A stretch of 64,000 nt of DNA from an uncultured SAR324 cluster bacterium (GTDB lineage: Bacteria; SAR324; NAC60-12): assembly GCA_905182865.1 (NCBI GenBank), contig CAJJCY010000003.1, forward strand, positions 586,054 through 650,053, written 5' to 3'. Below the pieces are notes generated by a model. The model saw nothing but the letters and a program-made list of their open reading frames with translations. It made no database searches and was not told the origin of the DNA. This document shows positions 24,937 to 31,388 of the stretch, piece by piece. The first letter of the stretch is position 1. Each line of letters starts with the position of its first letter. The position numbers and the translations under genes were made by a program.

Positions 24937-25263
24937 TTAACGCTGTGCTTTTTCTTCTAAGCCAGATTGACCGAACCGTTTTTTCAGTTCTTGTGAAATA
25001 TCTTCTATTGTAATCCCCTGATATCCCATCAGGATTAGCAAGTGAAACCAGAGATCGGTAATTTCGTGTATTTGATCTTTCCTGTTCTCGTTTTTTGTGG
25101 CCAGAATTACTTCGGCAGATTCCTCACCGATTTTTTTTAAAATGGAATCTATACCTTTGTCCATCAAGGAAGATACATATGAATTATCCGGAGAGCAATT
25201 TTTTCGGTCCAGGATAACATCATAAACCCTTTGAAACATTGTTGCGGATGTTCCTGTTTTCAT
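24937..25263 (-). CDS. hisE: Phosphoribosyl-ATP pyrophosphatase (monofunctional HisE)
   Basis: 108-aa ORF with KKIGEESAEVILA…EITDLWFHLLILM. ATGA overlap with the upstream regulator gene. Confidence 0.85.
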   Translation of the reverse strand: MKTGTSATMFQRVYDVILDRKNCSPDNSYVSSLMDKGIDSILKKIGEESAEVILATKNENRKDQIHEITDLWFHLLILMGYQGITIEDISQELKKRFGQSGLEEKAQR

Positions 25264-26723
25264 TTTTCAATATCTCTTTGATTCCTGAGACCCAGCGTTT
25301 CGATTTTTTTACGTAATGTGTTTCTGTTTATTCCCAAAATTCTGGCTGATTTTTGCTGGTTCCAGTTAGTTTGTTCAAGGAGTAATTTCAGCAGGGGTCG
25401 TTCTACCTGAGGTAGTACTTCCGCCAATAGTGAATCTTTGTCGAATTCAACTGCATCCCGAACCAGTCCTTCCAGTTTTAAAGATGCAACCTCTTCAAGA
25501 CTCTCTCCATAATCTGTTACAGGCTGAGGCCTGAACAAATTTTTTGGCAAAGAATCCAACATTATTGTGCCAGTGACATTGATTATCATCAAGCTCTTGA
25601 CAGTATTTTCCAATTCACGGATGTTTCCCGGCCAGTTATAAAGAGCAAACACACGCATCACTTCGGGTTCTACTGTTTTGCTTCCGACAGCCATTTCTTT
25701 GCTTCCCTTCTCCAGAAAATGTTCAGTTAAAACTGGAATATCTTCCCGTCGTTCACGCAAGGGAGCAATATTAAGCGGGAAAACATTCAGCCGATAATAC
25801 AGGTCAGTCCGGAAGTTTGAATTTTTAATCAAATTTTCCAGGTTCTGGTGGGTGGCAGTAATCACTCTCATATTTGTCGTGATTAGCTCTTGCCCCCCAA
25901 CTCGTTCAAATTGTTTTTCCTGCAAGACCCTCAAGAGTTTACTCTGGAGCCTCATCGGCATGTCTCCAATCTCGTCCAGAAACAACGTTCCCTGACTGGC
26001 AAGTTCCAGTTTACCACGCTTGCGTTCGGTTGCACCAGTAAAAGCACCTTTTTCGTGACCAAATAATTCTGATTCCATCAACTCAGAAGGAATCGCAGCA
26101 CAGTTAATTGCAACAAATGGTTGACTGGAGCGTAAAGAATGCTGGTGAATGGATCGTGCAATCAGTTCCTTCCCTGTTCCGCTTTCGCCTTGAATGAGTA
26201 CTGTCAAATCTGTAGCTGCGACTCGACCGATTGCCTTATATAGGTCACGCATCACTTTGCTTTGACCGGCCAGTAAATCGTCTGCTTTTTTTCCAGATTT
26301 TATTCTTTTAGTTTCCGGAGTACTCAGCGGAACTCGAAGTGCACGTTTTACCAGTTCTTCAATTTCATCAATGTTAAAAGGCTTGGCCACATAATCAAAA
26401 GCACCGGCTTTCATTGCTTCAACTGTGTTATACATCGTACTCTGACCGGTCATTACAATAGTCAACAGAGACGGAAATTCTTTTAAAATTTCCCGGGTGA
26501 ATGAAAGACCGTCTTTTCCGGGCAGGTTAATGTCAACAAAAGCGAGACGGATCGGATGTTTCTGAAGGAGTGGTCTTGCTTCCAAAACGTCTGCAGCCAG
26601 ATGAGGAATATAGCCGGCTTGTGATAAAGTGCGTTCCAGAACCCAGCGGATACTATGTTCATCATCTAAGACCAATATTTGAGATGATTCTTTGCTTTGT
26701 TCAATTATCTCCTGTTTGGACAT
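25260..26723 (-). CDS. Sigma-54-dependent response regulator (REC + AAA+ + Fis-type HTH; NtrC family)
   Basis: 487-aa ORF with a receiver domain (VLDDE…FVDINLPGKDG…KPF), GESGTGKE, GAFTGA and a C-terminal HTH (ARILGINRNTLRKK). Confidence 0.9.
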   Translation of the reverse strand: MSKQEIIEQSKESSQILVLDDEHSIRWVLERTLSQAGYIPHLAADVLEARPLLQKHPIRLAFVDINLPGKDGLSFTREILKEFPSLLTIVMTGQSTMYNTVEAMKAGAFDYVAKPFNIDEIEELVKRALRVPLSTPETKRIKSGKKADDLLAGQSKVMRDLYKAIGRVAATDLTVLIQGESGTGKELIARSIHQHSLRSSQPFVAINCAAIPSELMESELFGHEKGAFTGATERKRGKLELASQGTLFLDEIGDMPMRLQSKLLRVLQEKQFERVGGQELITTNMRVITATHQNLENLIKNSNFRTDLYYRLNVFPLNIAPLRERREDIPVLTEHFLEKGSKEMAVGSKTVEPEVMRVFALYNWPGNIRELENTVKSLMIINVTGTIMLDSLPKNLFRPQPVTDYGESLEEVASLKLEGLVRDAVEFDKDSLLAEVLPQVERPLLKLLLEQTNWNQQKSARILGINRNTLRKKIETLGLRNQRDIEK

Positions 26724-26790
26724 AGTTTATATTTTTGTTTTTTGAATCCAAGCACGGATAACAATTTGTCATGCCGTCGGAAAAAGTCCT

Positions 26791-27720
26791 TCAGGAATTT
26801 TGTATGCTCTTGGAGACGGTATTCAGGAAACCATCTGGCAGTAAATCCTCTTTTGCTAGGAACTTAAACAGGCTCAACAATGATTCCCGCATACTCACTA
26901 AATCTTCTTCCAGAGGGTTAGCGTTTTCCAGGAACCATTTTCCCAGGAAATTTTTGATCAACTCCGAGTCCCATTCTGAAATGGGTGGTGGCTCAAAATC
27001 AACCAGGAAAACCTCCAAATCCTCTTCCACTTGCTCTTGTTTCTCAGGAGGCACTAGTTTCATAAATTTTTTATAAACATCTGTTTCGATTGCTGGTGTC
27101 CGTTCTTCCGGTTTTTCTTCATCCAACAGTTCTCCATCTTCTTCTAAAATAGAATCGTCTTTTTCTGAACCTTCCATTTGTTTGGTAAGCTCCTGAATAA
27201 AATCATGATTGCGTTTTTCAAACTCTTCCATTGCTGCAGGCAAACTGTTTAGATCCAGTTTTTCTCCTTCTACTGCTGAACGTGTTTTCAGGAAAAGTGC
27301 AATTAGTACTGGGTTAGAAAGGTGTGGAATTTTGTCACTGTTCTCAATTTGATGACGGGTTGCTTTTGCCAAAACAGATTTAATTGATTTTTCAGAATGT
27401 GCTGATTCCAACTGTTCAAGTCTCTGGTCAAGATCTGCAATAAACTCTTCAGTCAGAAGTTCCAATATTATTTCTATTTCTGTTTTTTCACTTTCCAGCA
27501 ATGTACGGAGTTTCTCCTCACCCATATTTAAATCGGTCAGTTCCGGTTCAAATGCCAGCGTGGGTAAAGTATTCAGGAGTTGTTCAAGTTGTTGTGGAGA
27601 GCCTCCTTGTTGAGAGTTTTTCTTGGGCATTGCTTTGCGGCGCCGGATCATTTTCTTTTGACGCTTTTCCTTTTGACGCTTTAGCATCCCTGTTTTTTTT
27701 TGTTTTCTTTTTTTAGCCAT
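26791..27720 (-). CDS. Hypothetical protein: Lys/Arg-rich N-terminus, strongly acidic remainder
   Basis: Long ORF with no family I recognise. I prefer ATG 27720 (MAKKRKQKKTGMLKRQKEKRQKKMIRRRKAMPKK…) over the track's TTG 27741. It lies directly upstream of the NtrC-type gene. Confidence 0.55.
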   Translation of the reverse strand: MAKKRKQKKTGMLKRQKEKRQKKMIRRRKAMPKKNSQQGGSPQQLEQLLNTLPTLAFEPELTDLNMGEEKLRTLLESEKTEIEIILELLTEEFIADLDQRLEQLESAHSEKSIKSVLAKATRHQIENSDKIPHLSNPVLIALFLKTRSAVEGEKLDLNSLPAAMEEFEKRNHDFIQELTKQMEGSEKDDSILEEDGELLDEEKPEERTPAIETDVYKKFMKLVPPEKQEQVEEDLEVFLVDFEPPPISEWDSELIKNFLGKWFLENANPLEEDLVSMRESLLSLFKFLAKEDLLPDGFLNTVSKSIQNS

Positions 27721-27743
27721 TTTAAATAGACAAGTTTTCAAGT

Positions 27744-27759
27744 TGTGAAATCAATCACA
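27744..27759. promoter_or_regulatory. Perfect palindrome TGTGA-N6-TCACA (also reads as TGT-N10-ACA); candidate activator binding site
   Basis: tgtgaaatcaatcaca, in the divergent intergenic region. It is centred ~50 nt upstream of the -24 element at 27800. Confidence 0.5.
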
Positions 27760-27799
27760 CATTATTGCAGAATTATCAAATAAAATCACGTCAAATTAG

Positions 27800-27815
27800 T
27801 GGCTTGTTATTTGCT
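27800..27815 (+). promoter_or_regulatory. Sigma-54 (-24/-12) promoter candidate
   Basis: TGGCttgttatTTGCt has GG and GC separated by exactly 10 nt and matches TGGC-N7-TTGC(T/A). It lies ~90 nt upstream of ATG 27906. Confidence 0.65.
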
Positions 27816-27905
27816 CGCTTCTTGTTTAGTTTGACAGGATCAAAAAACAATACATTTACTTTCAACAGAGAAGTCCAAAATTCTTTCTAATTGCAGGTTA
27901 GTTTA

Positions 27906-29486
27906 ATGAATCAGATTCGAAAATATTGGCTGGGACTAATAATGATTGGTGGATTAGCAGTAATTGCCGTTGCAGGTGGTGACGTTGGAAGTTCACCAAT
28001 ATTCCCCATTCCACTCGATTCTTATGGAGATGCAGACCTGATTAAAAGTGGAGATATTTTCGCTGTTCTGGGGAACCGTATTACACATACACCGTTTAAT
28101 CTGTTTGCATCACTTATTTTTTTGTTTGCTATTATGCATACATTTGCTGCAGTAAAAATCACCGGCATTGCAAAAAAAATGGAACTTACTCATGCTGAAC
28201 AAATGAGAAAGTCGGGTAAATCTGAGGAAGAAATAGAACATAATCCACCAGTTCTAGCTGAAATGCTGCATTTTTTTGGTGAAGTAGAAGCAATTTTCGG
28301 AATTTGGGTTATCGTTTTGGCAACAGTAATGATTTCTTTTTATGATTGGTCCACTTTCAAAATTTATATAGCACAAACAGTAAATTACACTGAACCAATG
28401 TTTGTAGTGGTCATTATGGCCTTGGCTGCAACACGTCCGGTAATGCAGTTGGCTAAACAAATCTTGGGTAAATTTGCCGCTATCGGCAAGAATTCTCCAG
28501 GTGCGTGGTGGTTGTCTATTTTAACTTTAGCTCCAATATTGGGCTCATTCATTACAGAGCCGGCGGCAATGACAATAGCTGCTATGCTTTTGGCTGAACA
28601 GTTTTACCGACTTAAACCTTCCAGTAAACTTGCCTACGCTACAATCGGGCTGCTCTTTGTAAACATTTCGGTTGGTGGTACTCTTACCAATTTTGCCGCC
28701 CCTCCTGTACTGATGGTGAAAACACCCTGGGACTGGACCTCTTCATTTATGGCACTCAACTTTGGCTGGAAAGCAATATTGGGAATTCTCATTTCAAACT
28801 TAATTTATTATTATGCGTTTAAAAAAGAGTTTTCCAAGTTTGCATCCGCATTTGAAGCAGAAGCAGAAATGGAAAAAGATTCAGAGCGTCATGAAGATTC
28901 TATCCCAATATGGATCACTGCAGTACATCTTCTTTTCATGGGCTGGACTGTGTTCAATGCACACTATCCACCACTTTTCATAGGGGGATTTTTGTTCTTC
29001 CTTGGTTTTGCAATGTCAACCAAAGCACATCAAAGCCATATCAATTTGAAACCACCCCTACTGGTAGGATTTTTCCTGGCGGGTTTGGTAACACACGGTG
29101 GAGTTCAGGCTTGGTGGATTGCTCCTGTTTTGGGTTCCCTGGGTGACTTGCCGCTAATGGTGATGGCTACTGTGCTGACAGCATTCAATGATAATGCGGC
29201 AATTACATACTTGAGCACTTTGGTCCCGGACTTTGCTATTTCAGCAAAATATGCGGTGGTTGCCGGAGCTGTGACTGGAGGGGGATTAACGGTGATTGCA
29301 AACGCTCCTAATCCTGCAGGCCAATCCATTTTGTCAAAATTTTTCCCCGGTGGAGTGAATCCTGCCAAGCTTGCTTTGGGAGCAATCATTCCCACGATCA
29401 TTATGGGATTGGCCTTTATGGCTATTCCGCAAGATGTCAAGGACCCACAACAAGGTGGAAGTCTCAAAGTAGAAGCCACTCACTGA
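27906..29486 (+). CDS. Polytopic membrane transporter, paralog 1. Ion-transporter-superfamily-like; possibly the DUF1504 'putative Na+/H+ antiporter' family.
   Basis: Long hydrophobic ORF. I prefer ATG 27906 over the track's TTG 27891. Conserved blocks are shared with paralog 2: SFITEPAAMTIAA, AYATIGLLFVNISVGGTLT, FAAPPVLMV, FNDNAAITYL, VIANAPNPAGQSIL. The family call is from memory only. Confidence 0.55.
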   Translation: MNQIRKYWLGLIMIGGLAVIAVAGGDVGSSPIFPIPLDSYGDADLIKSGDIFAVLGNRITHTPFNLFASLIFLFAIMHTFAAVKITGIAKKMELTHAEQMRKSGKSEEEIEHNPPVLAEMLHFFGEVEAIFGIWVIVLATVMISFYDWSTFKIYIAQTVNYTEPMFVVVIMALAATRPVMQLAKQILGKFAAIGKNSPGAWWLSILTLAPILGSFITEPAAMTIAAMLLAEQFYRLKPSSKLAYATIGLLFVNISVGGTLTNFAAPPVLMVKTPWDWTSSFMALNFGWKAILGILISNLIYYYAFKKEFSKFASAFEAEAEMEKDSERHEDSIPIWITAVHLLFMGWTVFNAHYPPLFIGGFLFFLGFAMSTKAHQSHINLKPPLLVGFFLAGLVTHGGVQAWWIAPVLGSLGDLPLMVMATVLTAFNDNAAITYLSTLVPDFAISAKYAVVAGAVTGGGLTVIANAPNPAGQSILSKFFPGGVNPAKLALGAIIPTIIMGLAFMAIPQDVKDPQQGGSLKVEATH

Positions 29487-29744
29487 TTATAGTATTGTTT
29501 CAGTGAAGTGCAGAAATTCTGAAAAACACTTACCTTTTTGTTAAATCCCGATTTAAATGTTAAATTTTTATTGAACATGCATGAAAATAATTGATAGGAT
29601 CACTTTGTCGTAGTCTGACTGTTTGAGTTTTATAACTTAAGAATTACCAAGAAAATAATTTCACTAGGTGGTAGAAATTAAATCTGAATAAATTTTGTTA
29701 AGTATGCAATTTATCGTTTAATAAACCTCTCACGAAGGAGATCT

Positions 29745-31388
29745 ATGAAAAAATTTATAAAAGGACTCTTAACTGCCGGAATTTTGGTCCTAATTAGTAC
29801 AGGTGTAAATGCTTCTAAAGGAGAGGATTCAACTCCCTTTCCTGTACCTCTGAGCTGCTACTCTGAAGATTATGGTTCCCCTAATTTTTTAGCGGAGAGG
29901 TGTGATCAGGTTCACGGATCTGAAGGCTTCCGGGATCCGGAAGGAGCAAGTATTGTTGAGATACTATCCCATCGCATTAGTGCAAATCCGTTCAATTTAG
30001 TTGTATCATTGATTTTTCTGATTGCCATTCTGCACACATTCATGGCCAACAAGTTGACGGCCAAAGCACACCAGATTCATGAAGAGCATGATGAGCGGAT
30101 GAAAGCGGCTGGTGCTTCTGGAGAAGAAATCAAGCATGACGTTCCTTTCAAAGCAGAGCTTTTTCACTTTCTGGGAGAAGTTGAAGTTGTGTTTGGAATG
30201 TGGGTCATTGCCGTGTTGTTTGTCACAATCGGATTTTTTGATTGGGCGACATTTAAGAATTACATGGTCTACGACCGAGTTTTCATTGAGCCAATGTTTG
30301 TGGTTGTAATCATGGCAATTGCTTCCACGAGACCGGTTGTCAAGGTTTCAGAACAGTTACTGGGTCTTGCAGCCGGTTTAGGAGGTCACAGTAAAGCAGC
30401 CTGGTGGTTCTCAATCCTGCTGATTGCTCCCCTGCTTGGTTCTTTTATCACCGAACCTGCTGCAATGACGATTGCCGCTCTTTTATTGGCCAACCAATTT
30501 TACAAGTATAAGCCGTCTTCCGGATTTGCCTATGCCACGATTGGTCTGCTCTTCGTCAATATCTCAGTTGGTGGTACACTGACCCATTTTGCTGCTCCGC
30601 CGGTACTGATGGTTGCCGCACCCTGGAACTGGGACATGAGTTTTATGGCCAGTAATTTTGGCTGGAAGGCAGCTTTGGGTATCCTCATTTCCAATGTGAT
30701 TTACTTCATTATCTTTCGTAGTCAGTTTGCTAAAATGGGTAAGCAGGATGAGGTAGAAGCAAGCACTAATTTTCATACACCGGAAGTGCAGACACTAAAA
30801 CCTGGTCAGATCAGTCACGAAGAATTCGAAGCCAGGTGGTCTGAAAGAGAAGTTCCAATTCCGTGGTGGGTCACTCTGGTTCATATATTTTTTCTAGCTT
30901 GGACAGTATATACTGCACATTATCCGGCATTGTTTATTCCAGGCTTGCTATTTTTTCTGGGATTTTTGTCGCTCACTGCAACGCATCAGAACAAGATGGA
31001 ACTCAAGGGACCGATCATGGTTGGTTTTTTCCTTGGAGGCTTGATCATTCACGGCGGCCTGCAGGCCTGGTGGATTGCTCCAGTATTGGGCTCGCTGGCG
31101 GAACTGCCTTTGATGTTGACTGCAACTGTTTTGACTGCTGTCAATGACAATGCGGCAATTACTTATCTTGCGACTTTAGTACCGAACATGGCCGAAGCTT
31201 CGAAATATGCGGTTGTAGCTGGGGCAGTCACCGGTGGAGGATTGACGGTGATTGCGAACGCCCCTAACCCGGCGGGACAGTCTATACTTGGACGCTTTTT
31301 TGAAAATGGCGTAAATCCTTTAAAATTGTTGATTGCTGCTCTAATTCCTACGATTATTATGGGAATTTGTTTCATGGTACTTCCATAA
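29745..31388 (+). CDS. Polytopic membrane transporter, paralog 2 of the upstream gene
   Basis: 547-aa ORF, colinear with 27906-29486 along the whole membrane domain. GGAG RBS at 29737-29740. It has a signal-peptide-like N-terminus and a longer, Cys-containing extracytoplasmic segment. Confidence 0.55.
   Translation: MKKFIKGLLTAGILVLISTGVNASKGEDSTPFPVPLSCYSEDYGSPNFLAERCDQVHGSEGFRDPEGASIVEILSHRISANPFNLVVSLIFLIAILHTFMANKLTAKAHQIHEEHDERMKAAGASGEEIKHDVPFKAELFHFLGEVEVVFGMWVIAVLFVTIGFFDWATFKNYMVYDRVFIEPMFVVVIMAIASTRPVVKVSEQLLGLAAGLGGHSKAAWWFSILLIAPLLGSFITEPAAMTIAALLLANQFYKYKPSSGFAYATIGLLFVNISVGGTLTHFAAPPVLMVAAPWNWDMSFMASNFGWKAALGILISNVIYFIIFRSQFAKMGKQDEVEASTNFHTPEVQTLKPGQISHEEFEARWSEREVPIPWWVTLVHIFFLAWTVYTAHYPALFIPGLLFFLGFLSLTATHQNKMELKGPIMVGFFLGGLIIHGGLQAWWIAPVLGSLAELPLMLTATVLTAVNDNAAITYLATLVPNMAEASKYAVVAGAVTGGGLTVIANAPNPAGQSILGRFFENGVNPLKLLIAALIPTIIMGICFMVLP

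Follow-up and report, generated by a model that had tools for sequence, protein, structure and literature searches.

A 64,000-nucleotide stretch of a SAR324-cluster genome (the window; C3:586054-650053 of a 3.23-Mb, 5-contig assembly, G000) carries on its minus strand the gene of an NtrC-type sigma-54 enhancer-binding protein (EBP) of 487 aa (25260-26723) and, on the plus strand, two transporter genes of family PF07399, the first of which is preceded by a sigma-54-like -24/-12 match, TGGCTTGTTATTTGCT (27800-27815, +). A first-pass annotation read these elements, together with a nearby TGTGA-N6-TCACA palindrome, as a self-contained regulon; i.e. as tandem transporters under the control of the regulator beside them. 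The best explanation overall, at a probability of roughly 0.55, is that the regulator is the NtrC of SAR324 with glnA as its target, and that the transporter-side motifs are not its dedicated promoter. The self-contained regulon is contradicted by the occurrence of regulator orthologues in relatives whose transporters are absent or distant, by the GG/GC doublets of the match, which are not kept across the genus, and by the lack of an NtrC-type dyad near the transporters.

The same-genus comparison comprises 11 genomes including that of the window (G000, G001, G003, G004 and G011-G017), to which a metagenome scan adds contigs; the window's own species-level clade is represented by 22 contigs with 91-100% transporter identity. 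The window region is collinear with independent metagenome contigs (99.5%); Ga0209709_10001037 and MEHZ011496449.1 are contigs with 99.5% identity.

The regulator and the glnA promoter

The regulator has the full domain content of a two-component sigma-54 activator. Pfam assigns Response_reg to residues 16-125, Sigma54_activat to 152-317 (E 3.6e-74), AAA_lid_14 to 323-402 and HTH_8 to 437-475, and the translation carries the sigma-54 contact loop EKGAFTGA, the Walker A sequence GESGTGKE and, in the receiver (REC) domain, the phospho-acceptor pattern DD...FVDINLP...T...K. The C-terminal part of the protein matches Fis as well as 1NTC, the DNA-binding domain of NtrC. The top NCBIfam family is TIGR01818 (ntrC), with a full-length match of 519.7 bits that does not reach the curated equivalog cut-off of 558.6; NF008176 is matched at 449.4 bits, short of its cut-off of 620, and a second REC-containing EBP of the genome scores 421.8. 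The first-pass annotation was thus right that a REC-AAA+-helix-turn-helix (HTH) activator gene lies ~1 kb from the -24/-12 match on the other strand, its start being 1077 nt from the motif, and that this regulator is an orphan of NtrC type: it is a genuine sigma-54 EBP with no adjoining kinase gene, an ordinary kind of protein and a new member of that kind in SAR324. Like NtrC (NR(I)) of the enterobacterial NtrB-NtrC system, it combines REC, AAA+ (GAFTGA) and a Fis-type HTH, and ntrC is its best family, but unlike the enterobacterial protein it lies below the equivalog cut-off.

The well-supported target of this regulator would be glnA (C1:407113), which is preceded by a -24/-12 element, TGGCTTGGTATTTGCC, ~95 nt before the ATG, at the same place in all 11 genus genomes. 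Two NtrC-type dyads with the consensus TGCACAA-N3-TTGTGCA stand farther upstream at ~-182 and ~-163 (C1:406929-406964), again in 11/11 genomes, and glnA is the genome's only strong composite of dyad, promoter and gene. It follows that the glnA promoter of the genus is a canonical NtrC/sigma-54 one, cleanly detectable by comparative footprinting, whose dyads the regulator would be expected to bind. The arrangement resembles enterobacterial glnAp2, which likewise has a -24/-12 promoter with upstream dyads of the TGCAC-N7-GTGCA type found at SAR324 glnA; unlike the enterobacterial case, glnA is here unlinked to the regulator gene. A second conserved -24/-12 element, TGGTATATTGCTTGCT (C1:406831-406846, -), is directed away from glnA and toward a flagellar rod gene that begins 59 nt farther on and that we take, from our own reading of its translation, to be flgF/flgG-like; this element is retained in genus genomes with the same gene arrangement.

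The distribution of the regulator gene shows that it is not dedicated to the transporters. Family members in which the transporter is on a different contig have regulator orthologues with 61-68% identity, and in the complete genome G023 transporter and regulator are 3.3 Mb apart. In a sister family the regulator has orthologues of ~50% identity, and a transporter is found in 0/16 genomes. What is retained beside the regulator is orf309 (26791-27720, -), the upstream gene on the same strand, and often also hisE. The position of the regulator beside the PF07399 pair would accordingly be read as inherited gene order and not as evidence of a dedicated regulon.

The first-pass model resembles systems of the DctB-DctD/dctA type, in which the EBP gene stands beside the transporter that it activates, in that a REC-type EBP lies near a transporter bearing a -24/-12 sequence. 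The window locus differs from these in having neither a cognate kinase gene nor a conserved upstream activator dyad, and also in that its -24/-12 doublets are unconserved and its regulator persists in genomes that have no transporter.

The minus-strand row runs orf309, regulator, hisE. The last of these (phosphoribosyl-ATP diphosphatase; 24937-25263, -; NF001611, 128 bits, cut-off 99) overlaps the stop codon of the regulator by 4 nt, so that the two genes probably share a transcript, and their order is retained in relatives; co-transcription of the regulator with both hisE and orf309 is probable. orf309 encodes a highly charged 309-aa protein with a Lys/Arg-rich N-terminus and an acidic body, for which Pfam and NCBIfam searches gave no match. 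In several SAR324 genera its gene is the neighbour of the regulator, also where the transporters lie elsewhere (G018, G019, G023), and it occupies the place beside ntrC that is normally held by ntrB; unlike in an ntrBC operon, SAR324 ntrC follows the charged orf309 and precedes hisE. A kinase hidden between regulator and orf309 in relatives (L013, L017) was considered and rejected, as the gene found there encodes a TPR/SLH-like protein.

Kinases, PII and rpoN elsewhere in the genome

If the regulator is the NtrC orthologue of SAR324, it would belong to a genomically dispersed nitrogen-control system whose other parts would be a single rpoN, an orphan kinase of NtrB architecture (C1:236135-237259) and PII (C4:412368-412697). 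A profile search of the window gave no HisKA or HATPase_c match, in agreement with the first-pass statement that no histidine kinase is encoded there. The phosphodonor, which that annotation called unknown, has a candidate in a conserved orphan kinase of NtrB-like type encoded at another locus. Among the genome's ~7 histidine kinases it is a soluble 374-aa PAS-HisKA-HATPase protein with an NtrB-like H-box, which aligns over its full length with NR(II) at 159.9 bits, below the cut-off of 240, and which has a single-copy orthologue throughout the genus, family and order. On the basis of this family resemblance it is a candidate phosphodonor that would phosphorylate the regulator. Another kinase, of 742 aa (C3:197680-199908), has what we take to be an NtrY-like layout, for which NCBIfam gave no NtrY match. 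A PII gene and a kinase of NtrB architecture are likewise features of the enterobacterial system; unlike in the latter, ntrB is not adjacent to ntrC either in G000 or in 30 relatives.

The genome encodes three EBPs: the regulator, the second REC-type EBP (C1:161721-163217) and a REC-less EBP beside an aldehyde:ferredoxin oxidoreductase gene. Its one copy of rpoN (C2:668644-670300) has a broken frame in the G000 assembly, where the open frame with the DNA-binding domain is 239 aa long as compared with intact proteins of 552-591 aa in 13 relatives. Comparison with a 95% relative reveals three patches (~90, 50 and 53 nt) with sharp boundaries and unrelated sequence, between flanks that are 97-99% identical. 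The patches replace the most conserved motifs, i.e. region I, the segment preceding EPKPG and the VALNSAGMPRLRISNYY segment, and have no other copy in the genome. Comparable patches are present in mutS (C2:663084-663159 and 664510-664704) and in neighbouring sequence within the same 15.7 kb, and the break in rpoN is therefore probably an assembly artefact.

Sequences before the transporters

The transporter genes (transporter 1, 27906-29486, +, E 5.2e-165; transporter 2, 29745-31388, +, E 1.2e-165) are paralogues with ~55% identity in tblastn comparison, and they diverge from the minus-strand row of hisE, regulator and orf309. Both match PF07399 (Na_H_antiport_3, a putative Na+/H+ antiporter of the ion-transporter superfamily) over the full length, E ~1e-165. 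A full-text literature search for PF07399/DUF1504 found no functional study, and the family is without a characterised substrate. The order regulator-orf309-transporter-transporter is retained across the genus.

The -24/-12 match is as the first-pass annotation described it: TGGCTTGTTATTTGCT has the form TGGC-N7-TTGC with GG (27801-2) and GC (27813-4) correctly spaced by N10, and it faces transporter 1, whose ATG at 27906 is conserved, from a distance of 91 nt. Within the window four TGGC-N7-TTGC matches occur where 2.98 are expected, and 32 of 100 shuffles reach that number, so that the count is no higher than chance would give. The match is evolutionarily unstable and its function doubtful. 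GG, GC and spacing are intact in only four of the 11 genus genomes (G000, G001, G004 and G013) and broken in the other seven as well as in contigs L111, L116 and L140. The changes are of many kinds: G016 reads TGGATTATTTTTCGTT, G012 ...TTTATT, G003 TGCC...TTGTT, and G014 and G015 ...TTGTT; G011 has lost the GG, G017 has a spacing of N8, L111 has lost both doublets, L116 is altered in spacing and has GT, and in L140, a 98% relative, GG has become AG. On the transporter tree the state of the element differs between the sisters G013 and G012 and between L107 and L111. The L111 spacer may stem from a more distant lineage, since its regulator and orf309 are far less alike to those of the window than is its transporter 1.

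In L107, L108 and L111 transporter 1 is 88-92% identical to that of the window, transporter 2 only ~77%, and the spacer between the two transporter genes resembles that of G017; in L111 the regulator and orf309 are much more divergent. This mismatch, together with the divergent L111 genes, suggests recombination breakpoints around transporter 1.

In none of 12 loci does the stretch from -600 to +300 around the site contain a glnA-type (NtrC) dyad, and none lies near either transporter gene; an activator site of another type is possible. In other genera a sigma-70-like TTGCCT-N17-TA(T/G)GTA precedes the transporter. Dependence of PF07399 genes on sigma-54 as a family-wide trait was rejected: in other lineages and phyla sigma-54-like sites are not enriched before these genes, the best scores averaging 5.83 forward and 5.96 reverse. 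A sister-genus candidate, AGGACGTGAAGTTGCT, is present in closely related contigs but has GT in L121 and is uninformative.

What is conserved in the spacer between orf309 and transporter 1 is the sequence adjoining the match. In the 11-genome alignment a nearly invariant 35-nt block, TTGCAGAATTATCAAATAAAATCACGTCAAATTAG (27765-27799), is followed by TGGCTTATTTTTTG(C/T)T, and a core, AAAATCACG(C/T)NAAAT, is retained in two other SAR324 genera. The block is single-copy in the genome and is without recognisable sigma-70 geometry; Rfam reported nothing in the window at gathering thresholds, nor in 27650-27950 at E up to 1. It was rejected as a repeated regulon motif, being single-copy and missing from the sequence upstream of orf309 in G023, a genome with its transporter at another location. 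The sequence TCGCATATTATTGCAG within the block was likewise rejected as a sigma-54 site because it lacks the GG and has a spacing of N9. In a sister clade (clade B; L044, L045, L047-L050 and L116) the corresponding sequence TGGCTTATTTTTTGTT, a TGGCTT-T-tract, is retained with no GC, so that the constraint there is not canonically that of sigma-54. The TGGC-N7-TTGC match may then form the 3' edge of a block under a different cis-regulatory constraint, and a single C/T difference would toggle its likeness to a sigma-54 site. It is more likely a by-product of the conserved block than a conserved sigma-54 promoter, and as such would be non-functional; the block itself may act on transporter 1 or, in the other direction, on the orf309-regulator operon.

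Several observations weigh against assigning the regulator to glnA and discounting the transporter-side match, and most of them favour a different account, in which TGGCTTGTTATTTGCT functions in this lineage as a sigma-54 promoter that has undergone turnover within the genus. An EBP, either the adjacent NtrC-type protein or the second REC-type EBP, would then place the transporter pair under nitrogen or signal control, acting on a promoter that precedes transporter 1 in the window's clade and transporter 2 in clade B. Under a position weight matrix that follows the published consensus, the match, with its correct geometry, scores 14.1 and ranks seventh among correctly oriented intergenic matches genome-wide. 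Sites scoring >=14 upstream of genes number six as against 1.35 in shuffles and none in reversed/complemented controls, so that most matches of this strength would be real. The match agrees with the conserved glnA promoter at 14 of 16 positions, including the unusual TGGCTTG form, and it stands ~1 kb from one of the genome's only three EBP genes. It is invariant in 21 of the 22 own-clade contigs, and conservation ends directly after the -12 element, as expected of a transcription start. A scan of 27600-28000 found no sigma-70 consensus promoter facing transporter 1; the one site that it detected is internal to orf309. A -12 element with GT for GC may keep some activity. The NtrB-like kinase, moreover, adjoins an EBP gene in none of 30 relatives nor in G000, and its pairing with the regulator follows from family resemblance only.

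The spacer before transporter 2 bears on the same question. All seven clade-B sequences have, ~107 nt before transporter 2, a 22-nt island, AATTTCGGAA(C/T)ACATTCTGCAT, of the form CGGAA(C/T)A-N3-TTCTGCA, in which GG-N10-GC is invariant while the spacer bases vary and the flanks have diverged; it may be a sigma-54 promoter in that clade. The window's clade retains a degenerate homologue of the island in the spacer 29487-29744, reading TTCTTCA or TTCTGAA. Altogether nine of 13 lineages have a single sigma-54-like site ahead of one or other transporter, which is compatible with promoter turnover.

Set against a working promoter are the loss of the element in seven of 11 genus genomes, the GG to AG change in so close a relative as L140, and the three lineages L043, L051 and L111, which have neither transporter site. 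No upstream site, an NtrC-type or any other dyad, is conserved near either promoter; the motif is only 78 nt from the start codon of the divergent gene; the region is still conserved in clade B where GC is absent; and the regulator is kept where the transporters are absent. On balance a working promoter is a possible reading, to be held tentatively and clearly behind that in which the regulator serves glnA.

The palindrome fares less well. TGTGA-N6-TCACA is indeed present at 27744-27759, but the first-pass description of a perfect 16-bp palindrome holds only for its 5-nt arms, the spacer AATCAA not being complementary. Its arms form an exact classical CRP half-site pair that lies between divergent genes, as would suit a CRP/FNR-family operator of divergent promoters. 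Conservation and occurrence speak against such an operator: 15 of the 22 own-clade contigs have a defect in an arm or in the spacing, and among the 11 genus genomes only G000 and its 95% relative have the palindrome, the other nine reading TTTGAAG(C/T)TGATCGCA at its position. A genome search for further copies, as the first-pass annotation proposed, yielded the exact pattern seven times where ~3.8 are expected, with only three copies intergenic; within the window three matches with <=1 mismatch compare with 2.61 expected, again the level of chance. The genome has no CRP/FNR-type HTH at the Pfam cut-off, the best HTH_Crp_2 match being 22.7 bits against 27. A CRP/FNR operator is accordingly very improbable, and the arms would be a chance feature private to this lineage.

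Regulation in an uncultured lineage

SAR324 bacteria are abundant in the dark ocean and uncultured, and their regulation must therefore be read from sequence. An unlikely proposal is that both PF07399 transporters are sigma-54-dependent, with a promoter that has been relocated within the genus and control by a kinase-less NtrC module in which the conserved orf309 lies at the usual position of ntrB. If true, this would provide the first regulatory context, a nitrogen-linked one, for the uncharacterised PF07399 family, and a clear case of sigma-54 promoter turnover.

With the regulator taken as the SAR324 NtrC and glnA as its target, the locus illustrates that even next to an activator gene a textbook-like -24/-12 match may not withstand a simple test of conservation, one that glnA, the true Ntr target, passes cleanly in the same genomes. 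The comparison also yields a consensus for the NtrC dyad and promoter of the genus, a candidate NtrB partner, a conserved 35-nt block before a member of an uncharacterised transporter family, and a possible sigma-54 island before transporter 2 of the sister clade.

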